This document shows, in pieces, positions 3,715-52,721 of a stretch of DNA of 64,000 nucleotides. How positions within the stretch are numbered: the first letter of the stretch is position 1; each line of letters begins with the position of its first letter. Origin of the DNA: Eledone cirrhosa (Eukaryota); assembly GCA_964016885.1 (NCBI GenBank), contig OZ024742.1:38192001-38256000 (forward strand), given 5' to 3'. The position numbers were made by a program, and so were the translations under genes. The notes under the pieces were generated by a model. The model was not told the origin of the DNA, did no database searches, and saw only the letters and a list, made by a program, of their open reading frames with translations.

Positions 3715-5057
3715 AAACTCTGAACTCCAAAGAAAAAAATGGTGTACATATGATAAAGAATTATGGGCAATGGTTTGGGCTGTTTGACATTTTCGGCCAC
3801 ACTTAGTAATGCACAAATATATAGTGGTTACAAACCTCAGGCTGCTACTCAATGCACAGAATCTTCAGCCTGGTAATGACCTCACTGGACGCCGAGAGAG
3901 ATTGTCAATTGAACTCAGCACTTATGACCTTGCAATGGAAATAAACATACAAATGTTGATGTACTCTCTAGAACACAGAGTAGCAAAACAGATGTTCATT
4001 TAGAATCTACAGCAGTGACTGATGATGATTCTGAAAATAGTAGTGACTTATTTTCCAAGGTCAGTACAGTGCAATGATGCCGATATTTGGAAGATTATAC
4101 AGTAGGAGAATCCATGGTTCAACAACTGGTGCTCATCTAGAATTTGATAAAATGTTTTCAATAACAAAACAAAGATTCTTTTGGTATACCATGAGACAAA
4201 TTGTAAAAATATGGTGTTCAATAATCTCAATGTGTGCAAAGGGAAAGTCCCCAAGTCCTAAACCTAGAGCTCCAATGGATATATTAGGGCCACTTCCAAC
4301 AACAGAAATGGGGAACAGGTATGTATTAGTGGTTTCCAATTTTTTTTTAAATGGCCAGAGGCTTTGCCTTGCCAGATTACTGAGCAGAAACCATTGTTGA
4401 AAAGCTTGATGAAATGTTTTGGTGTTCCAGAAAGAATACACGTAGATCAAGGTGTGGATTCTGACTCTCAATTAATACATACAATATGCAAGCTGCTGGA
4501 CATTGAAAAAAAAAAAAAAGGGACAACCCCTTACCATCCTAATCAGATGGACAAGTTGAACACCCGAATCATACTTTTTGCCAGATGTTAAAAATGTTTG
4601 TTAATGAAAACAGAAGGCCTGGGACGAGGTACTTCCCAAAATGTTATTGGCATATTGTTTAATTGAACATTCAGTCACAAAATTTAGTCCCCACTTCATT
4701 ATGACAGGGAGGGAAGTCAATTTACCTGTTGATGTAATGTTTGGGGTTTCACAAAGTAGATGTGAAAATATGCCAGATTATGTAGGCAAAATTTGCAAAG
4801 CCTGGAAAGAGGTTTTGAATTAGAGAGAATATTACTGCAACATACAGACACTAGAAAATCTGGTATGATAGGCGAGTAAATAGTCCAAAATATAAAGTTG
4901 GTGATTAAGTTCTATTGTATTTTTCAGCTGTGAAAAGGGTAAGGACAAGGAAATTACAGGTTTCATGGAAGGGTCTCTTTAAAGTGATCAAAGTTATAAA
5001 TGATGCACTATACAGAGTTCAACTTATTGGTGGACGATATAGGACAGTTGTTTATTT
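3715..5057 (+). mobile_element. Ty3/Gypsy LTR-retrotransposon pol relic (RNase H, integrase, GPY/F)
   Basis: Frame-broken motifs KELWAMVWAV*HFRPHL (RNase H), MDILGPLPTTEMGNRYVLVV, FGVPERIHVDQG, TTPYHPNQMD, SPHFIMTGREVNLPVDVMFG, KLQVSWKGLFKVIKVINDALYRV. No LTRs recognised. Confidence 0.85.
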
Positions 5058-5373
5058 TATCATCATCCTTTTACATCTGTTTTTCCATGCTTGCATAGGT
5101 TTGGCTCTTCTCCAGCACAGATTTCCCCCCCTTGTTGCATTCCTTTGTCATTTCTTCTGTGAGGTTCAGCATTCTGAGATCTCTCACACCTTCTGCTCAG
5201 GTATTCCTCAACTACAACTTCCTTCCACTAGAAACTACAATAAAACTATGTCAGCCTAGAAAAACAGATAGATCTTATTCCATATAAGTTTTCTTTATAA
5301 TTTTCTTCAGACACCAGTTGTCACACATCAAAATCACCAGTTTACATATTAACTTAGTCACCATCATATTTTA

Positions 5374-6542
<1,169 letters not shown>

Positions 6543-17640: not shown

Positions 17641-20436
17641 TCATCATCATCATCATCATCATCACCGTTTTACGTCCGTTCTTCCACGCTAGCATGGGTT
17701 AGACGGGTTGTCCTGTTGTGGGCAGTGTCTGGTCGGCTGACCATGCCTTGCTCATACAGGAACTGATCTGGCTTGATTTCTACAGCTGGATGCCCTTCCT
17801 AACACCAACCTCATTTACAGTGAGTGCTGGGTGCTTTTTCGTGGCGCCTACACGTCCACTTTACAGTGTGGGCTGGGTGCTTTTTTGCCGTGGCTCCTCC
17901 ACGACCACCTTGCGGTGGGGGGGGGGTGTGGGGGCATATTGTTTATATGCTTCAGCATGTACCCATGGGAGGTCGGGTACCCTGTATTACTGCGTGACGC
18001 CAGAAGTCACGGTCGTGTGTCATTGACTTTGAGAGGTGTAGTTGGGTAAGGTCGGCTTTTATCACCTCATCCCAAGTCATCTTGGGTCTCCCCACTCCGC
18101 GGTTTCCATCAACTTCTAGTGCTCTGCACCTTTTTATGCAGCTGTCATCCTTCATACGCATCACATGTCCATACCAGCGTAACCGCCTCTCCTGCACGCA
18201 GCATTTGATTCCTCTTATGCTCAGTCTCTCTCTCAATTCATTTATGCTTTGTCGTTCACGTATATTACTGTTACACATCCATCGGAGCATGCAGGCTTCG
18301 TTTCTCTCTAATCTACGTAAGTCTTCCACCTTCAGCGCCCAGGTCTCACTACCATGCAACATCGCTGTTCGGATACACGCATCATACAGTCTGCCTTTCA
18401 TTCTGAGGGAGAAGCCTTTTGCAGCTAGCAGTGGTAGTAGTTCCCTAAACTTCTTCCATCCCGTTCTTACCCTAGTTATTGTACTTTCTGAGCACCCACC
18501 TCCGTTGCTAATTCGGTCACCTAGGTAGCAGAAGCTGTCTACTGTTTCTACAGGGCCCTCCCAGAGATTGGTGGTACTTGTTTCCTGTGGCTGTTTGCTT
18601 GCTGTTTCAGCACAGCTGCTGCATGTGAATCCTACATTCTTAATTAAGCTTCCTGAGATCCCGCTACATCTCTTGTGTACCCATTGTTTGCATTTGGGGC
18701 AAAGAATGGAGTTCCTACCTACACCTTTCCTACATACTGAGCAAGGCCATTTCCCTGAGGGGATCTGGGTTCTGTTTTCTCGTCTACTTATAAGGACCTT
18801 AGTCTTTGTCATGTTGACTTTGAGGCCCTTTCTCTCTAGTCCCTGCTTCCAGGTTTGGAATTTATTCTCTAGTTCTACCATAGATTCAGCTATGAGTGCG
18901 AGGTCATCAGCATACAGGAGTTCCCATGGGCATCCGGTCTTAAACTCCTCCGTTATTGCCTGCAGGACTATGATGAACAGGAGAGGGCTAAGAACAGAGC
19001 CCTGGTGGACCCCAACCTGTACGCTAAATTCCTCGCTATACTCATTGCCAATCCTAACTTTGCTGACTGCTCCCCTATACATGGCTTGTACCGCTTTCAC
19101 AAGCCATTCATCTACTCCTAGTTTTCTAAGAGCCCACCAGATTACTGCACGTGGAACTCTGTCAAAGGCTTTCTCAAGGTCGACAAATGCCAAGTAGAGT
19201 GGCTTACTTTTAGCTAGGTACTTTTCCTGTAATTGCCTCACAAGGAAGAGCGCATCAGTGGTGCCTTTCCCTGGAACAAACCCAAATTGCATCTCGTCTA
19301 TATTCACCCGGTCCCTAATCAGCTGTGCTATAACTCTTTCTGTTACTTTCATGACCTGGTCCATCAACTTTATACCTCTATAGTTTCCTCTATCTAGTGC
19401 ATCGCCTTTACCTTTGTAGCAGTTGACAATGATGCTACTGCACCAATCTTTTGGTATGGCCCCCTCTAGTATTACCTGGTTAACGATACGTGTGGTTATA
19501 GTGTGACCTACAGACCCAGATGCCTTCAGCATCTCGGCAGCTATACCCGATGGACCGGTTGCCTTCCCTATCTTCATATCTCTGATTGCCTTACTTACTA
19601 CGCTGCCGCTGACTTGTACTGCTGGTCCCTCTATAGGGTCTACGTGGGGTAGGGTCTCTTCTTCCCATGCATTCTCCTCATTTAGTAATCTATCATAATG
19701 ACTCTTCCATGCATCTTTCTTCTCAGCACTTGTGAGGGCAAGCTCACCTTTATCATTCCGGATACACTTCTCTCCAATGACATCACAACTATCTCTGACA
19801 CACTGCCTCGCAATCTTGAATACCTCCTGTTTCTGGTCCTCACGTTGTAAAACATGCTTGAATTTTCTATCCTCTGCTTCCCTCCTAGCTAAGTATACTT
19901 GTCGCCTAGCTTCCCTCTTGGTCTCTATGTAATGTACCCTGCTCCCCCCGTTCTTCCATTCTTTCCATGCCTGTCTCTTGGCCTTGACTGCTTCATCTAC
20001 CTTATTGTTCCACCACCAAGTCACTCTCCTCCTGCTTGAGGTCTTACTCCAGCCACAAACCTCATCCGTCGCCTCTAGTAAGTTATTTTTTAGGAACTCC
20101 CAGTTCTCTTCTACGTTAAATGTCTCTATCTGTTCTTCTTTACTGTCGTAGGCGTTGAGTAAAATATCTTTAAATCTGTTACTGGTTGAGGGGACTTTCA
20201 GCTTCCAGATCTTTCTTCTCCAGGTTGGCCTCTGTTTCAGGGCTCGTCTAGTTCTGACCGTGAGGTCGCTGACAACTAAGCTATGTTGGGATGTACATTC
20301 CTCACTAGGGAAGGCTTTTGTGTTTACGACCGTCCATCTGTCACGTCCTCTGATGAGGATAAAATCTAACTGACTAGAGTGCTCCCCTGATCTATAGGTG
20401 ATCAGGTGGTTGTCGGGTTTTTTAAAGTTTGTGTTA
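17641..20436 (-). mobile_element. 5'-truncated RTE LINE inserted into CR1 ORF2
   Basis: Reading frame open from 20435 (NTNFKKPDNHLITY) to the stop at 17952, with RT motifs (NYRGIKL, AFVDLEKAFD, GVHQGSVLSP, LYADD, YLG). (GAT)n tail at 17641-17663. TSD catctat at 17635-17641 and 20437-20443. Confidence 0.95.
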
Positions 20437-22405
20437 CATCTATGTCATTAATATATGCCACAAACAAAAGAGGACCAAGAACAGATCCCTGTGGTACACC
20501 AGATGACATCTCATATGGTGAAGAATGCTGTCCTAGAACTGTGACTACTTCCTTTCGGCTGAGAATGAAGGATTTCAGCCAGTCGAAAAGATCATCCCTC
20601 ACACCCATTGCAGAGAGTTTTGCCATAAGTCTTTTGTGTGGCACAGAATTAAAAGCCTTAGCAAAGTCAAGGTAAACAACATCCACCCATGAGCCGCTGT
20701 CAGTGATCCGGGTGATGTCCTCAAGGAACTCGATAAGCTGATCACAGCAGCTGGAGTTAGGGATAAATCCAAACTGTGAGGGCCGGATGAGGCTGTGAGA
20801 GCTCCAGAAGTTCCAAAGTGTTTCTCTGACACAGGATTCCATCAGTTTGGCCATACAGCTAGTAAGACTGACTGGACGATAGTTGACAGGTGACATGCGG
20901 TTGCCCTTTTTGAACAGGGGAATGACACTGGCAGTTTTCCACTGCTCTGGAGTAGCACCATTGCTGAGACAGTATTGAAAGAAAAAAGAAAGCTGGCGCA
21001 AAAGGAAATCCCCGCCACGTTTGAGAAGCAGGTATGTCACACCATCAAGACCAGGGGAGGCATAGTTGCGCTTATTCTTAAGGTGACGTCGCAACATTGC
21101 AGGTGTAAATTCCATAGTTGTTATGGAATTTGATGTTAGAGATGGTGGAGATGGTACATTCTGGTTTTCAACAGTAAAAATACTTGCATAGCACTCAGCA
21201 ATGAGTTCTGCGCATTCCTTGGGATCGTCAGTGATCTGGCTTGTGTGGGGATTGCGAAGAGGACCAACTGGAGAGTGAGGTCTCTGCTTTGAATGAACAT
21301 ATTTCCAGAACACCTTACTGTCGGGATTGGTTGCGATGCACTGTTCAAATTCAAGCACTGCCTTCTTTGTCACTTGCTTGAGATGGTTAGAAGATTTATT
21401 CCGCTTTTTTCTGTTGGCATCTGATCTATGCAGTTTATATTCCCGTTCAGCGTTCCGACGTTCTTTCCTGGCAAGTCGGACTGCTGAAGTTTCCCAGATT
21501 GCACTTTTGGGGTGGTTATTTTTCCGCTTCCGTGGCACTGATGCTGCACACGCTATCCATATTGAGTCCAGGATGCTCTGGAGTATAGAGTTCACATCTC
21601 CAGAGTTATACATCTCATGCCAGTTTGGGCGCTGTAGCTCAGTGCAGTACAAGTTCCAATCAAAGCAAGCAGATTGGATATGGCTCTGGTTTTTGTTGCT
21701 GCCCTCAAGTGCCAGATTGGCAATGATCATAGCATGATCAGAGTCGCCTAGAGGTTCCTCAGTAGTACAACTGATAACCACTTCAGGAGTAGTGGTGAAG
21801 ATCAGGTCCAAAGTGTTGTCACCTCTTGTTGGAGAGGTGACTACTTGTGACCAGTTTGAGTCCAGCACTAGTTCAAGGAAATCGTTTGCACCCTGTGGCC
21901 AACGAAAGGTTTCCCAATCGATCTCAGGATGATTGAAGTCACCTGCAATAAACACATAAGTGGCTGTTTTCTTGGCAGCAACTCTGAGGATATCGCAAAG
22001 CTGTGTGTCCTGATGGTAGTTTGGGGGGCGATAAACAACACCAAGCAGAAGTGTTGACATGGTCATACGTATGTCACAGAAAAAAACTTCTTCCTGTGAT
22101 TCGTTCAAATCAACGCAAGGAATTACCGAAAAGTTTGAACGAACGTAGACCATCACACCACCACCACGGCGGTTAATGCGGTCCTTGCGGAAAAGGTTGT
22201 ACCCAGTAATGGTGAAAACCCCATCACAGAGTAAGGAATGTGCCCATGTTTCCGTGACTGTGATGAAGTCAGGGTCGATGCTTCTGACGTAGGATTCGAA
22301 CAGATGTATCTTGTTGCATAAACTGCGAGCATTTAAGGACAACAATTTGTACCCTGCTCGCAGTTTATGATGGTGTGTAGAGGGTGGCAGGTTGTTCTGG
22401 TTTAG
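20437..22405 (-). CDS. CR1 ORF2, N-terminal part (APE endonuclease plus RT), no AUG start
   Basis: Frame stays open upstream of the TTG at 22345 through the ORF1 stop (LNQNNLPPSTHHHKLRAGYKLLSLNARS). Confidence 0.88.
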
Positions 22406-22845
22406 TTTCCCAGAGTTGTAGCAGTTTTTACATTGCCAGTTATTGTGGGTAGATCACACTCAGACCAGCTGGTATCTCTCTTCCACGTTTCACCAGCCTT
22501 GACAAACCTCCAGATCTGCCCATCATCACGCAGACTGAAACTTTCATCTTGTGCTGAGTTCCGATTCAAGGAAGCTGCAGCACGTAGTTTTGGACGTACA
22601 TGGGGTGGTAGGCCTGGGCGTGTTCGGAAGGTAATCCGATTTTCACGCCCAGCTTTAGCAGAGGCGAGATGATATGAGGTTGCCTCTGCGGGGTCCGAGA
22701 AAGACAGCCTGATGAGTCTGGGTTTTGGACCAGGTCGACCAAGGCGGAGGGCACCCTTTGGGGGAACACAGCCTAGGTCTTTGGCCGAGCTGGCAGCAAA
22801 TGCCTGAAGATCGGCCTTGTCCTCTGGTACCCCAATGGCAATCAC
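22402..22845 (-). CDS. CR1 ORF1 C-terminal fragment
   Basis: Open frame with GVPE..., RLGRPGPKPRLIRLSF (RRM-like pattern typical of CR1/L2 ORF1) directly upstream of ORF2; ends ...TTLGN*. Confidence 0.7.
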   Translation of the reverse strand: MIAIGVPEDKADLQAFAASSAKDLGCVPPKGALRLGRPGPKPRLIRLSFSDPAEATSYHLASAKAGRENRITFRTRPGLPPHVRPKLRAAASLNRNSAQDESFSLRDDGQIWRFVKAGETWKRDTSWSECDLPTITGNVKTATTLGN

Positions 22846-29784: not shown

Positions 29785-35246
<5,462 letters not shown>

Positions 35247-36555: not shown

Positions 36556-37407
36556 TCAAGAAACTTTTTTCAAAAGCTTCTGTTTCCTAATGTACGCATT
36601 GTAGAAAAAATGTGCAAAGAGGAAGAAATAACTACAATACATCAGAGTTGAGTATTTTATATTGTCATAGCTCTGGTTGCAGTATTCTCCTCGTGCTTTG
36701 ATTTGGAATGACCAATAATTTATGAGACAGCCAACAACCATTTGTAATATCTGCAGCGATGTGACGGTCATGTTAACCACCACCGGAAGATAGATACGCA
36801 TCGCTCGCAAAGCGTAGTATGTATACATGATAGAATGTACGATATAGTTCATAACCATGAACCATCGTCCAGGGGCTGTATGATCAGTGTAGCTGTACCA
36901 AACATAGATCAACGTGGCGATATGATGGTACCAGTGCAGGAATATTAACTGCTGTTTCCGCAGGACTATAAACAGCGTATCACCCAGCTCAAATACCTTC
37001 GACACAGTGAACATATATGCCCAGAAGCTGGTCACACCACGGAAATACGTTGGAACACAGATGGAATATTGTAGGCTACGGTTTTGGATTGTTGAAATCA
37101 GCTCTGGCAGTGTACGTATGGCGCCTGCAATGCTGAACAAAGCCAGGGTTCCACTCCACACAGCCAAAGCAGGTCGGAGGTCAAATTTGTTTCTGGCTTT
37201 CATCCAGCACTGCCCACCAAAGATGAGAACTATATAGATAACTGAATAAATAAAGCAATTGGTCCAGTTCTTGAGCATGTACTCCATGAAAGATGGTTCA
37301 TCGAAGAGCTTCTCAAAATTGAAGACTATGGAATAGTTATGTTCACCATCTTCCATCATCTGCCAACCCCCCATATGACTTTGGCTTGATACAGAAGCTA
37401 CAACCAT
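36556..37407 (-). CDS. ELOVL6: Very-long-chain fatty acid elongase, ELOVL3/6 (GNS1/SUR4) family, 283 aa, single coding exon
   Basis: Motifs SKVFELGDT, FLHWYHH (HxxHH), MNYIVHSIMYTYY, TSLQILQM, C-terminal KKxx ER-retrieval signal. Acceptor ctttctttttcttcacag at 37473; an in-frame TGA upstream of the ATG fixes the start. Orthology to ELOVL6 is inferred from motifs. Confidence 0.93.
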   Translation of the reverse strand: MVVASVSSQSHMGGWQMMEDGEHNYSIVFNFEKLFDEPSFMEYMLKNWTNCFIYSVIYIVLIFGGQCWMKARNKFDLRPALAVWSGTLALFSIAGAIRTLPELISTIQNRSLQYSICVPTYFRGVTSFWAYMFTVSKVFELGDTLFIVLRKQQLIFLHWYHHIATLIYVWYSYTDHTAPGRWFMVMNYIVHSIMYTYYALRAMRIYLPVVVNMTVTSLQILQMVVGCLINYWSFQIKARGEYCNQSYDNIKYSTLMYCSYFFLFAHFFYNAYIRKQKLLKKVS

Positions 37408-39389
37408 GATGTCTGGGGAAGAAATCTCTTCAGCAACAATACTGGATGGACAATCTTCTTGGTGCCTTCAATCTGTGAAGAAAAAGAAAGAATGAAAAGC
37501 ATTGATAAGATGGTCAATAAAAGTCAACAAATAAAATATATATTAAGGTGGGTGGAGGGAAGAATCAAATTGGAATAAAAAGGTTTAAAATACCTATAGA
37601 TTTAATGTGTGCATCATCATCATCATGATTGTCTAACATGTCTTCCACACTAGCATGGGTTAGATGGGTTTGTCCCATTTAGAGACAAGTTGAGTTAAAT
37701 GACTGTCTTACTCATATAGGGCAGTTTCTGGCTGGTTTTCTACGGCTGGATGCCCTTCTTAACGCCAACCACATTTACAGTGTGTGCTGGGTGATTTTTG
37801 TGCATATGTATGTAAATATGTATCAATGGAAAATTAATACTACAAGTAAAGAAAAGTCATTCAACCTTTTCTATAGCATATTTCTCATGAAAGACTACTT
37901 GTGGTTTTCAAATAATTTTGAAAGTAAGCAACTAACTTTCTCATTATTAAACTGGTGTTTGGTACTTAGTTTCTTACATAAAACTATGATTGAAGGTTTT
38001 CAGATTAATATAAACATTTTTAAATAAATAACTTAGTATTAAAGAATTAAAGGCAGTTTCAGGTGATTTGGTATCAAAAGAGTTAAATTAACATTTCTGA
38101 TTGTTAAGAAATACAAAGTTAGTTTCTATCATGAGTTTCACATTCAGTATTACAAAGAGAAAATATAGCTATCGCATGACCAGTCATATTACAGGTGGAT
38201 ATAAATTGATTTAAGGATACTTATAATGAAATTTTAGCTGACTACTGCTTAATATTAGTTTTAGAATATACATTTTTCCATTCCATACAGTGATACTGTT
38301 AGCACCATGATGAAACACACCTAGGATACGCTGTAAAGTGATAGTGCTGGTGCTCTGATAAAATTCTCCAGTACACTATGTAAAGTAGTAGTGTTGGTGC
38401 CATGATAAAATACACCCAATACACTCTGTACATGGCAATGTCAGTTCCACAATAAAATGCACCCAGTACAGTCTGTAAAGTAATAGTGTTCCTGCCGCAA
38501 TAAAACACACCAGTACACTGTAAAGTGGCAGTGCTGTTGCCATGATAAAATGTACCTAGGATATACTGAAAAGTGGTAATGCTTGTGATACAATAACATG
38601 CACCCAATACACTCTGTAAAGTGGTAGGTATTAGAAACCATAAAAAAATGAAATGTATGAGCAAGACGTGGTTCACTGTCAGTGTCTTGTTTTAGACTGT
38701 GACAACTTTTCCAACCCATGGCAACAGAGAAAATAGACATAAAATGATGATGATAGAACTTAAAATTCAAAAATATCTTATAAAAGATAGACAAACATTG
38801 AGTGTGTGTGTGAGAGAGGCAGTGTGTGTGTGCAAGAGAATGTATGTGTGTGAGAAAGAGAAGGAAAGAAAGATAAAAAAGAAGTAGTGTGTAAGAGAGA
38901 GAAAAACAGTGTGGGTGTGGATGTACATGTATGTGTGCTTGTGTATATGCACTTGTGAATGTGTGTGTATACATTTGTACACTCACTTATTTTGAAATGT
39001 TCCAATGCCAAGCCAGATTTACATTAGACTAGTAAAAAAAAGTGATGGTGTCAAGGCTGCTGTTTCCCTTCTACATATCAGTTCAGTTTCAGAGAGGACA
39101 TTCAAAAGTGAGCCTCATTGAAAATGATACTGAAATGTTAACAGGTGAGAACTAGCTTTTTAGGTCTCACTTTGATAAACTGTCACTATTTAAAAAGCAA
39201 AACTAGCCAATGAATGAAATAGTAGGATAGTAAAATATGGTGTGAAATCCACATGTTCAAATTCTTATATTTTATTTTGTTTTGAGCATTAGAGACTGTG
39301 GTGATGCTGGGGCATTGCATTAAGGAGATTGTAACTAATTATACTTAACCCATCCTATGGATATTTCTACCAAACTTATACTACAGTAC

Positions 39390-39920: not shown

Positions 39921-39951
<31 letters not shown>

Positions 39952-40231
39952 CATCATCATCGTTTAACGTCCATCTTCCATGCTTGCATGGGTTTGGACG
40001 GGAATTTTCCCACTTGAGGCAAGATTGGTTGTCTTGTTCGTATAGGACTGTCTGGCGGGTTTTCTATGGCTGGATGCCCTTCCTAACACCAACCACGTTT
40101 ACAGTGTGGACTGGGAGGTTTTTACCGTGTTACCTACACGGTCACATTACAGCGTGCACTGTGTGTTTTTATATATATATAGTGTATTTATTAAATATGG
40201 ATTTCAATATTTAATAAATACACCATGTTTT

Positions 40232-40297
40232 TTATTCATTCTGACAACTGAAGACAGACACAACATGTCTTCAAGAAACCACTGGTAAATGAAATAA
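40232..40297 (+). ncRNA. Type I hammerhead ribozyme motif (G8 to A mutant)
   Basis: ttattcatt CTGACAA c tgaagaca gacacaaca tgtcttca a GAA ACC act GGT A aatg a aataa: stems I, II and III plus a GUA cleavage triplet. Confidence 0.75.
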
Positions 40298-40420
40298 TTA
40301 TCTTATGTTGTTTATTACATAACTAATAAGCTCTGTAGCCTACATAGAGCACTCTTTTTTCCTGTACCTTTCTGACGGAAATACTTCACACATATATCTA
40401 TATATATATATATATATATA

Positions 40421-48236: not shown

Positions 48237-51200
48237 GACTGCGGAATCCTGGAGAGTGGAAGGGAGAGAAAAATCTGGACGCTCAGCGAAAATGCCAAAG
48301 TTAAAGACAAATTCACCTCGTGGACGAGAATGCGAGCACTCCTCTTTGTTTCGTCCGCGGATGGCTAACATAACCCCATCTCCCCCCGCCCCCAAACGCA
48401 ATCCAAAACTTCAGAGTTGGTACCATAAATGTAGGCACCCTAAAGGGTCGCGCTAACGAGGTTGTAGAAATGCTTGAACGTAAGGAGGTCGATGTTTGTT
48501 GTATTCAAGAGACCAGGTGGAGGGGTGGGTCTGCTAGATTCATTGAGGGTAAAAAACGATGTTATAAGCTTTTCTGGGTGGGAAACAACGATGGGCTGGG
48601 TGGAGTAGGAATCATGGTAGCAGAAAAGTGGGCAGATAAGATAATAGACGTAAATAGAGTGAACGACAGAATAATTAAAATACGACTTGTCCTCAATAGA
48701 ACTACGGTGACAGTAATATCTGTGTACGCACCCCAATCCGGACTGCCCGGCACTATAAAAGACAGATTCTATGAGACACTGATGCTAACTACCTCCCAAA
48801 TATCCAACAGTGACTATATAATTATTGCAGGCGACCTAAATGGTCACGTTGGACAACATTGTGACGGCTACGACGAAGTCCATGGAGGCTATGGGTTTGG
48901 TACTAGAAATGAGGAAGGCTCCAGAATCCTGGAATTCTGTGATGCAAATAACCTAACTATCTGTAACACTAACTTCAAAAAACGTGACAATCACCTGATC
49001 ACCTATAGATCCGGGGAACACACAAGCCAGGTAGATTATATCCTTACCAGAAGACGTGACAGAGTGTCTGTTGTAAACACTAAATCCCTCCCCCATGAAG
49101 AATGCACCTCCCAACATAGACTGATAATTAGCGACCTCATAGTCAGGACGAGACGTACTCGACAGCAGAAGAGGACTATCCTCAGGAGAAAAGTATGGAA
49201 GCTAAAGGACCCCACAGCCAGAAATAAATTTCAAAGCATATTACTTGATGCTTTCGACAGTAAGGAAGAACATTTAGAGTCGGACAATATAGAGGGACAG
49301 TGGGAATTTCTGAAAGCAAATCTGCTGATGGCGACAGACGAAGTCTGTGGCTGGAGCAGGCCTGTAGGCAGAAGGAGAGTAACATGGTGGTGGAACAGTA
49401 AGGTGGAGGGGTCAATTAAGGCCAAAAAGCAGGCTTGGAAAGTATGGCGGGATGGGGGAAGTAGAGAAGGCTATCAAGTGGCCAGGAGGGAAGCTAGGAG
49501 ACAAGTGTACTTAGCAAGAAGGGAAGCAGAGGAAAGAAAGTTCAAGCATGTTCTACAACGTGAGGACCAAAAACGTGAGGTGTTCAGGATTGCTAGGCAA
49601 TGCGTCAAGGAAAACCGTGATATTGTCGGGGAGAAGTGTGTACTTAACGATGATGGCACACTTGCCATCACCGACGCTGATAAGAAGGTAGCTTGGAAGT
49701 GTCACTATGAAAGGCTACTAAATGAGGAGAATAAATGGGAGAAAGACAGTCTCCCCCATATCGACCCAATAGAGGGACCAGCAGTGTTAGTCGAGGGGAG
49801 TATAATAAGTAAGGCAATAAAAGATATGAAGACGGGTAAGGCGGCTGGGCCTTCGGAAATAGTTGCTGAGATGCTGAAGGCATCTGGCACGGTGGGACAC
49901 ACCATGGTCACCCGGATAGTTAACCAAGTCGTACAGAATGGGGTTGTTCCGAAGGACTGGCGTAGCAGCATCATCGTTAACTGTTATAAGGGTAAAGGAG
50001 ATGCCCTAGATAGGAGTAACTATAGAGGCATTAAATTAATCGACCAGGTCATGAAGGTCACGGAAAAAGTAATAGCGCAACTAATCAGAGAGAGAATTGA
50101 CCTAGATGAAATGCAATTCGGGTTTGTGTCAGGCAAAAGTACCACAGACGCTCTTTTCATTGTACGACAACTACAGGAGAAGTACCTAGCTAAAGGTAAA
50201 CCCCTCTACTTAGCTTTTGTCGACTTGGAGAAAGCCTTCGACAGAGTCCCCCGCTTCATTATCTGGTGGGCTCTTAGAAAACTAGGCGTTGACGAATGGC
50301 TTGTGAGGGCTATACAAGCCATGTATAAAGAAACAGTCAGCAAGGTTAGAATTAACAACTACTATTTATTATTGCCCTTCAGGCTATAACAGAGGAGTTC
50401 AAGACCGGCTGCCCATGGGAACTCCTATACGCAGACGACCTGACACTCATAGCGGAATCAATGGCCGAGCTAGAGAAGAAATTCCAAACATGGAAGCACG
50501 GCCTAGAGTCAAAAGGACTTAAAATTAACCTGGCTAAGACTAAAGTTCTAGTTTGTAGGAAAGAAAACAAGGCGGCGGTCCCTTCTGGGAAATGGTCATG
50601 CTCGGTGTGTAGGAAAGGCGTAGGTAGAAACTCCATTTTATGTCCTAAATGCAAAGTATGGGTGCATAAAAGATGTAGTGGGATCACAGGTAAGCTAACT
50701 AAGAACATAGATTTTACATGTGGCCGGTGCTCTGGTGCAATAAGTAGCAGCAAGTGCCTACAAAATACTAGCTCTTTCAATTGCGCAGAGGGTTCTATAG
50801 AAATAGTGGACAGCTTCCGTTACCTGGGCAATAAAATCAGCAGTGGGGGAGGGTGCTCTGAAAGTACAGTAGCTAGAGTCAGAACTGGTTGGAAAAAGTT
50901 CAGAGAGCTTATACCACTATTAGCCGCTAAAGGGTTCTCCCTAAAAATGAAAGGCAGGTTGTACGATGCCTGCATACGAACAGCAATGTTGCATGGCAGT
51001 GAGACCTGGGCATTGTGTGCAGAGGATATACGCAGACTAGAGAGGAACGAAGCTTGCATGCTCCGCTGGATGTGTAACAGTAATATACGTGAACGGCAAA
51101 GCATAAACGAACTAAGGAAAAAATTAGAGATAAGAGGGATCAGATGTTGTTTACTCGAGAGAAGGCTACGTTGGTATGGACACGTGATGCGCATGAAAGT

Positions 51201-51755
51201 CGATAGCTGTATAACAAAGTGCAGGGCAATAAAGATAGACGGTAGCCATGGAATAGGCAGACCTAGAAAAACCTGGGACGAGCTGATAAACTCCGACCTC
51301 ACACACTTACACCTCTCCAAGACAATGTCACTGGACCGAGATCTTTGGCGCTACACAGTAATACAGAAGACCCGCCTTGCCTAAGTACAAAGCAAAACCT
51401 ACAGTCAGTAGGCACCTCTAACAAAAATACATCCCCATCCCACCACCCCCACCCCTTTCGATGTAAAGTTATGTTTGTACCACAACATCCAGTCCGAAAT
51501 AAATGAGGTCGTGTAGGTGCCACGACAAAAAAACACACAGTCCACGCTGTAATGTGGCCGTGTAGGTAACACGGTAAAAACCTCCCAGTCCACACTGTAA
51601 ACGTGGTTGGTGTTAGGAAGGGCATCCGGCCGTAGAAAATCCACCAGACAGTCCTATACGAGCAAGACAACCAATCTTGCTTCAAGTGGGAAAATTCCCG
51701 TCCAAACCTATGCAAGCGTGGAAGATGGACGTTAAACGATGATGATGATGATGAT
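48237..51755 (+). mobile_element. Near full-length RTE LINE (sister family), inserted at a (TA)n tract
   Basis: APE (RVGTINVGTL, IQETRW, SVYAPQ, GDLNGHVG, SQHR) plus RT across ORFs 48470-50389 and 50461-51384. A ~60-nt frameshifting deletion at ~50360 removes GVHQGS. 3' UTR and (GAT)n tail present. Confidence 0.95.
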
Positions 51756-51965: not shown

Positions 51966-51993
51966 TAGAGAGAGAGAGGGGGGGGGGGGGGTT

Positions 51994-52260
51994 ATATAAA
52001 AACATATATAATACGTTTACATACAATAAACATTATAGGTAGCCAGCTGCCAAAGAAAAGTATTTTTTGTAACAATACGAAAAGAAAAAAAAAAATTATT
52101 TTTTTCTGTGAATAGGTCACTATGTTTTGAGAATGTCAGTCAGTGCTGTTTCAAGATTTATTAATTTTTCATCAGTGACACTCACTCAAAACATACTGGC
52201 ATGAAATAGACAATCTATATCAAATTTTGTGTGATGATCACTTGCTGGAGATGTTCATTT
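51994..52260 (-). mobile_element. Copy A (inverted, one TIR) of the hammerhead-bearing TIR element
   Basis: Reverse complement of 52426-52700. Minus strand carries tgtca CTGATGA aaaatt aata aatctt GAA ACAGCACTG AC tgaca. Confidence 0.8.
52121..52200 (-). ncRNA. Type I hammerhead ribozyme motif, copy A (cleavage triplet GAC instead of GUC)
   Basis: Long bulged stem I (tatgttttgag-tg-agtgtca / tgacatt-ctcaaaacata), intact CUGAUGA and GAAA, stem II with one mismatch. Confidence 0.8.
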
Positions 52261-52313
52261 GCATATAGTGCGAGCTTGGCTGATTATATTTAATTGACAG
52301 TAGCACTAAGATA

Positions 52314-52721
52314 GTGTTTAATCATAATAGAAGTGTATATGAAAACATATGTAATACGTTTAAATATAATAAATATATGGGTAGCCTCGCTGCTGAAGAA
52401 AAATATTTTCTCAGAACGAAATGAAAAATGAGCATCTCCAATAAATGATCATCACACAAAATTCTATATAGACTATAGTCTATTTCATACCAGTACATTT
52501 TGAGTGAGTGTCACTAATGAAAGATTAACAAATCTTGAAACAGTACTGTGATATTCTCAAAACATACTGGCAACTCTGATGTATTCACCGCGAAAAAATG
52601 AATTTTTGTTTTTTTTTATGGAAAATTTTTTTCTTTGGCAACAAGGCTACACCTATGTTTATTGTATGTAAAGGTAATATATATATTTTTTTTCATATAC
52701 ACCTCTAATATGCTTAAACAC
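52314..52721 (+). mobile_element. Copy B: ~410-bp element with ~100-bp TIRs enclosing a hammerhead motif
   Basis: 52314-52410 and 52621-52721 are imperfect inverted repeats (gtgtttaa-cata-taga-gtgtatatgaaaa...gtagcct-g-tgc--aagaaaaa-attttc). Confidence 0.8.
52490..52571 (+). ncRNA. Type I hammerhead ribozyme motif, copy B (G5 to A, 2-nt loss at the cleavage site)
   Basis: agtgtca CTAATGA aagatt aaca aatctt GAA ACAGTACTGT gatattctcaaaacatactggc; perfect stem II and palindromic stem III. Confidence 0.8.

Follow-up and report, generated by a model that had tools for sequence, protein, structure and literature searches.

The island at 40182-40392 of the window (the whole 64-kb stretch of DNA analysed) belongs to a very abundant octopus repeat family and carries a type I hammerhead fold. 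We conclude that it is a damaged, dispersed repeat copy, probably a 5'-truncated terminal repeat (pseudo-LTR, pLTR) of a Penelope-like element (PLE) or a non-coding derivative of one, likely inserted in (TA)n. The hammerhead of this copy is likely inactive in cis, a prediction that follows from the replacement of G8 by A, which breaks the C3-G8 pair.

Hammerhead motif and fold

The hammerhead spans 40232-40297 and has its ends in stem I; core position 8 is A, and a C·A mismatch lies under stem II. Every part named in the sequence-only reading that preceded this work (stems, core, GAA, GUA and a 17-bp inverted repeat) was found where that reading had placed it. The features of the island and its flanks are as follows.

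40170-40181, no strand: (TA)6 tract, 5' flank; likely insertion target
40182-40198, minus strand: left arm of a perfect 17-bp inverted repeat, an inverted copy of 40207-40223
40207-40388, plus strand: body of the repeat copy, non-coding; two listed pieces begin at 40207 and many end at 40388
40232-40240, plus strand: stem I 5' strand, from sequence and fold
40241-40247, plus strand: core C3-A9, CTGACAA in this copy; A at position 8 (40246), where the family has G
40248-40274, plus strand: stem II region; C·A at 10.1/11.1 (C40248, A40274), 8 bp, 9-nt loop; the distal portion varies among subfamilies
40275-40277, plus strand: GAA core strand, from sequence
40278-40286, plus strand: stem III, near-palindromic, with a 3-nt loop (arms 40278-40280/40284-40286), from sequence
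40285-40287, plus strand: GUA triplet; predicted cleavage site after A40287
40288-40297, plus strand: stem I 3' strand, from sequence and fold
40330-40350, plus strand: 7-bp hairpin 3' of the hammerhead; common variants at 40337 and 40338 lie in its loop
40392-40421, no strand: (TA)15 tract, 3' flank; other copies also enter microsatellite here

Positions follow hammerhead numbering, in which core position 7 is the free position, in agreement with the published PLE-hammerhead consensus. G12 A13 A14, the A15.1-U16.1 pair and H17 are all present, at 40275-40278 and 40286-40287. This copy departs from the C3 U4 G5 A6 N7 G8 A9 core in having A at 40246 while C3 is retained, and from the G-C (purine-pyrimidine) consensus at 10.1-11.1, where the island has C·A and other subfamilies have U-A. 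In the hammerhead C3 and G8 pair with each other (PMC3088659, as far as consulted), and a natural U3-A8 covariant is described there; since C3 is kept, the A8 copy is not that covariant.

At minimum energy, 40228-40300 takes the form of the hammerhead three-way junction, and stem I then has 6 contiguous base pairs. For 40207-40325 the minimum-energy form is a hammerhead with the 9-bp stem I and one bulged A that had been drawn from the letters beforehand. The two arms of the 8-bp stem II (40249-40256/40266-40273) pair with probabilities of 0.77-1.0. With the whole island 40182-40392 as context, pair probabilities are at most 0.08 for stem I and 0.18 for stem III, which makes the hammerhead a minority fold. 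Stem III, a near-palindrome of odd length, is more stable as a dimer than as a monomer: the monomer hairpin has an energy of +0.4 kcal/mol and the homodimer duplex (8 bp, central C·C mismatch) of -8.2 kcal/mol. This preference fits the dimer model put forward for PLE hammerheads in the parts consulted of PMC4209133 and PMC6765202. A longer stem I that pairs 40208-40227 with 40304-40321 in one fold was rejected; the family allele at 40219 would break one of its pairs. At the 3' end of the element (40373-40385) a core-like word, CTGACGG, is followed by AAA; it leaves no room for a stem II and is probably due to chance.

Repeat family in public sequencing runs

The island stretch, or part of it, is present in 15 of 18 listed runs, and the analysis rests on four of the 15 (X1, X4, X6 and X13; four organism labels from four studies), which were aligned to the island. 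No RNA run is among those listed with the stretch. Contigs on the 211-base stretch number 2,624 in X1, which may be close to the window's own source, 17 in X4, 13 in X6 and 5 in X13. Identities of the X1 contigs are spread broadly (590 at 99% or more, 762 at 95-99%, 876 at 90-95% and 396 below 90%). That 2,624 distinct X1 contigs fall on 211 bases indicates many divergent copies; summed depth in these runs is not a copy number. The multi-copy family expected from the sequence is thus borne out by X1 together with the copies in the three other runs.

The base that is missing here is present in most other copies. G occupies 40246 in 27,566 of 27,970 depth in X1 (98.6%, 73 contigs), as well as in the sole covering contig of X6 and of X13; X4 has no coverage at this position. 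Since G is found nearly throughout, the family core is CUGACGA, just as the sequence-only reading had predicted when it proposed that G8 was lost in this copy, and A8 places the island in the 1.4% of X1 depth without G. At 40241-40245, 40247-40248 and 40274-40299 no variant is listed at an 8% share, a missing row being no proof of identity. The C·A under stem II had also been put down as a deviation of this copy. It accompanies the intact core in three runs and is therefore a trait that the family shares rather than damage to this copy. The same reading attributed the loss of G8 to CpG decay. Deamination would give this change, but the 1.4% of depth without G and the reported absence of 5-methylcytosine from octopus transposons (PMC9476566, as far as consulted) make a plain point mutation as likely as CpG deamination.

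Both position 7 and stem II vary between copies, with loose ends and subfamily stems interpreted by eye. The X1 loose-end consensus 5' of 40273 (22 contigs, agreement 0.77, median 11 letters) has GAGGA at the end of its core, and its stem II is another one, of 11-12 bp with U-A as the closing pair; relative to the stem II of the window, two pairs are changed on both sides (G-C to A-U and A-U to G-C). The 3' arm of this stem occurs in 4 X4 contigs as well, and few contigs reach its 5' arm because the loose ends have a median length of 11. An X6 contig of depth 1,602 on 40249-40321 combines the core CUGAAGA and U at 10.1 with the window's stem II. This contig is a perfect head-to-head palindrome centred 2 nt 5' of C3 in which the 5' strand of stem I is lost, pointing to amplification of such stubs in that organism. 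In one X13 contig position 7 is U, stem II measures about 12 bp and the core has a second defect, A6 to G. Stem II grows by 2 bp through a two-base insertion after 40265 (18 X1 contigs, 1 X13), and a T-to-C change at 40268 is found in 14 X1 contigs and 1 X13; no partner change is listed for the latter, leaving an A·C mismatch inside stem II. Position 7 is thus C in X1, X6 and X13, G in the X1 loose-end consensus, A in the deep X6 contig and U in the single X13 contig, and the U-A subfamilies are known from loose-end consensus letters and single contigs. A single X4 contig with another stem III loop, which would keep the dimer palindrome but adds a mismatch, was set aside. Variation at position 7 and in stem II is what a hammerhead under selection should show, with the caveats that each form is seen in few contigs and that long perfect stems can be homogenised at the DNA level without selection on the RNA.

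Insertion site and origin of the island

The family ends in microsatellite. Among the loose ends listed, 62 X1, 2 X4 and 1 X6 contigs enter (TA)n or (CA)n at 40388, where one X13 contig does not. A second 3' end at 40321-40325 leads into (TA)n/(CA)n in 24 X1 contigs and 1 X13 contig among the loose ends listed. The two ends lie about 63 nt apart; the PLE tail is described as 30-40 nt long. Loose 3' ends of this kind match the insertion bias of the Neptune and Naiad clades of PLEs, which prefer microsatellites (Craig et al., 10.1101/2021.04.23.441226, in the parts consulted), and are to be read against a genome in which microsatellites are very common.

At the 5' side, the inverted repeat turned out to be nearly private to this copy and not part of the family: depth over the left arm is 41-74 in X1, compared with about 30,000 over the core, and coverage of the arm is zero in X4, X6 and X13. 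The arm moreover mirrors the minority T at 40219, where A accounts for 4,707 of 4,897 depth. A rare arm that mirrors a minority base points to a foldback of this copy or of a small sub-lineage, not to a family feature; the foldback at the 5' end likely arose at insertion or later. According to 10.1101/2021.04.23.441226, in the parts consulted, PLEs insert as 5'-truncated copies, and these often have a truncated, inverted copy next to them. Truncation with an adjacent inverted copy is seen here in the 17-bp arm, the X6 palindrome and an opposite-strand joint in X1, although it is not specific to PLEs.

The Penelope-type origin proposed in the sequence-only reading fits the anatomy. Octopus is rich in Penelope elements (PMC8967140, as far as consulted). 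In the parts consulted of PMC4209133, PLE hammerheads have a helix II of 7-8 bp, an extra base after A9 and a palindromic helix III, and are mostly dispersed single motifs, sometimes on opposite strands. The helices of the octopus family are of this type, with a stem II of 8 bp (11-12 bp in other subfamilies) and an 8-bp dimer duplex interrupted by a central mismatch. The part of that proposal that would tie the repeat to a coding element gained no such support. A Pfam scan of 110 of the 163 window ORFs of at least 70 aa detected no GIY-YIG domain, and reverse transcriptase only in ORFs of APE-type LINEs; the remaining ORFs are the 15 shortest and 38 that mostly cover LINE, zinc-finger and ELO ORFs in another frame, and the microsatellite array likewise lay outside the scan. 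No listed contig of X1, X4, X6 or X13 spans the whole stretch.

Under the PLE reading, RNA of the source element would be cut after GUA, probably as a dimer of two repeats paired through stem III. Copying into a (TA)n site would start at the 3' end of that RNA and be the work of the element's reverse transcriptase and GIY-YIG nuclease. Where it stopped early and folded back, a stub of about 180 bp headed by a short inverted piece would remain. In this copy, G would later have changed to A and so broken the C3-G8 pair. In place of the usual G-C, the pyrimidine-A junction under stem II (C·A or U-A) would predict slow cutting.

A solo monomer of a non-LTR retrozyme, that is, of a tandem repeat of 150-450 bp whose transcript is cleaved at one hammerhead after another, made circular and inserted anew, is an unlikely source. 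The island resembles animal non-LTR retrozymes (PMC7229834; 10.64898/2026.07.22.740005, both in the parts consulted) in being short, non-coding, low in GC, present in high copy and equipped with a type I motif with a 3-bp stem III; retrozymes are present in molluscs (PMC7229834), and some families are rich in solo monomers (10.64898/2026.07.22.740005, whose main text, as consulted, names vertebrates, three insects and a coral as species). The two readings overlap, because the latter source derives retrozymes from pLTRs. Unlike retrozymes, however, the octopus family has 3' ends that enter microsatellite, and the window holds neither a tandem nor any second copy of the island. Of the four joints listed, none runs head-to-tail from the 3' end back to the 5' start and one (the opposite-strand joint in X1) switches strand. 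A retrozyme array is therefore not seen, with the proviso that a monomer longer than the stretch, or short contigs, could hide such a junction.

A narrower version of the PLE reading, in which the repeat is the terminal repeat of a Naiad-type PLE whose predicted active hammerhead, with its pyrimidine-A junction and exchangeable stem II, is missed by standard descriptors and Rfam, is in our view quite unlikely. Within 10.1101/2021.04.23.441226, as consulted, Naiads are reported from Octopus spp. and reported without hammerheads, whereas Neptune has hammerheads. The octopus family shares with both clades insertion into (TA)n, 5' truncation and an inverted 5' copy; assignment to a clade would depend on the ORF, with a C-terminal nuclease for Neptune or Poseidon and an N-terminal one for Naiad. 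If the Naiad-type version were true, octopod genomes would contain a large, uncounted population of variant ribozymes.

It is improbable that the island is the 3' or internal part of some other mobile element (a SINE, the tail of an APE-type LINE or a foldback DNA element) that captured a hammerhead which is now a passenger. X1 depth over 40294-40317 exceeds that of the 5' core about 30-fold, which may mean that more families share the 3' part, and the deep X6 contig is a foldback without stem I. Much of this depth step, however, comes from subfamilies with another stem II in which the core is kept (the loose ends at 40273). The family has no terminal inverted repeats in common, and the island has no similarity to the LINE or SINE copies of the window.

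We consider it very improbable that this copy still works as a variant ribozyme and acts locally, for instance on the transcript of the neighbouring ELOVL6 gene. An uninterrupted ELOVL6-like ORF (36556-37467, minus strand; 98% identical to an Octopus vulgaris protein, from which the host was taken to be an Octopus) lies about 2.7 kb from the island, which is upstream of it; the three helices are intact, and in a dimer an intact partner could still cut the GUA site of this copy. Against such a role, the hammerhead is on the strand opposite to ELOVL6 and is a minority fold in the whole island, A8 is a minority state at 1.4%, and retention of C3 sets the copy apart from the natural covariant (PMC3088659, as far as consulted).

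Chance resemblance was assessed with a descriptor that allowed one core substitution and the mismatch under stem II, and which had a single match in the window, at this site. With stems of at least 6, 8 and 3 bp it matched none of 1,876 block-shuffled windows; relaxing the stems gave 4 matches in 1,876 at 5/6/3 bp and 66 in 1,876 at 4/4/3. The descriptor was composed after the motif was seen, and the shuffle rates are optimistic because it was fitted to the motif. The folding energy of 40228-40300 does not stand out (z = -1.57, equalled by 15 of 200 shuffles), and no Rfam hammerhead model appeared among 136 matches at E≤1 across the window or among 9 matches at E≤10 in 40170-40400. Exact core-to-stem-I patterns of 23 nt and 21 nt had no match in metagenome contigs and viral contigs, respectively; a 17-nt pattern found 90 loci, none of them similar beyond about 27 bases or in a hammerhead context, and these were treated as chance. 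A look-alike arisen by chance in an AT-rich, hairpin-rich repeat, to which the modest z-score, the absence of an Rfam hammerhead match and the tailored descriptor would all be congenial, is nevertheless largely refuted and has very little probability left, given that no shuffle matched, that exactly the missing G is restored in other copies, and that variation falls on position 7 and stem II, the fixed positions of the core being mostly constant.

Relation to known hammerheads and to the rest of the window

Among described motifs, the octopus family is most like the form of type I hammerhead, with a helix III that is small and palindromic, of metazoan PLE pseudo-LTRs (Cervera and De la Pena 2014, PMC4209133, in the parts consulted): it has CUGANGA followed by a non-G base, an 8-bp helix II, a near-palindromic helix III and AT-rich flanks, and it occurs as dispersed single copies with several subfamilies per genome and opposite-strand pairs. 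It differs from the G10.1-C11.1 consensus of that source in having pyrimidine-A throughout, and from its motifs in that the stem III palindrome is of odd length with a central mismatch and that this copy is without G8. In Fig. S3 of the same source the basal pair of helix II is U-A in a Hydra motif, and an extra A precedes GAAA in one of 56 motifs, the text order of the figure not telling which; none of the 56 motifs is from a cephalopod.

A U·U at 10.1/11.1 is a natural exception (PMC3088659, as far as consulted), and the passages available from PMC2238771 and PMC6155905 contain nothing on this pair. Unlike U·U and U-A, a family-wide C·A at 10.1/11.1 had no precedent in the literature searched, seen in part. 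That literature, the scope of which lay outside subscription journals and repeat databases, likewise yielded no report of cephalopod hammerheads. Hammerhead-bearing Penelope stubs are already known across animals, and the significance of this family is modest: it adds a cephalopod example and a family-wide C·A/U-A junction missed by Rfam. Work by Lunse et al. (2017) on small PLE hammerheads, as cited in PMC6765202, may already cover junction variants of this type. The junction and the natural stem II subfamilies offer a cheap test of how far the hammerhead core tolerates change at 10.1/11.1. They would also test whether microsatellite-targeting PLE clades thought to be hammerhead-free hide variant hammerheads.

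A minus-strand 3' fragment of an RTE-like LINE (39950-40170), with a (TA)n tract on either side, immediately precedes the island; it is 95% identical to 51529-51749. The sequence-only reading had called the island unrelated to an element near 52 kb, which is valid at the DNA level: there is no sequence similarity between the two (best blastn E 0.21). That element (51990-52700) follows a (TA)n tract and has long inverted arms (52141-52260/52426-52548) and a 343-bp direct repeat. By eye, it contains two hammerhead-like motifs on opposite strands, with cores near 52513 (plus) and 52177 (minus), each defective and one with a palindromic helix III. It resembles an inverted-repeat stub from a different PLE family.

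Elsewhere in the window, a compound TA/CA microsatellite array extends over 5.4 kb (29793-35245) and encloses a near-perfect hairpin with arms of about 45 bp (31130-31228), which has weak matches to miRNA models and is probably a small foldback element. APE-type LINEs are located at 17952-22453 (minus strand) and 48374-51750 (plus strand), and in two RTE-like ORFs of these LINEs a PHD finger follows the reverse transcriptase domain. A C2H2 zinc-finger array at 5374-6360 (minus strand) is interrupted by frameshifts and stops, and LTR-retrotransposon integrase fragments are found at 4047-5256 (plus strand).
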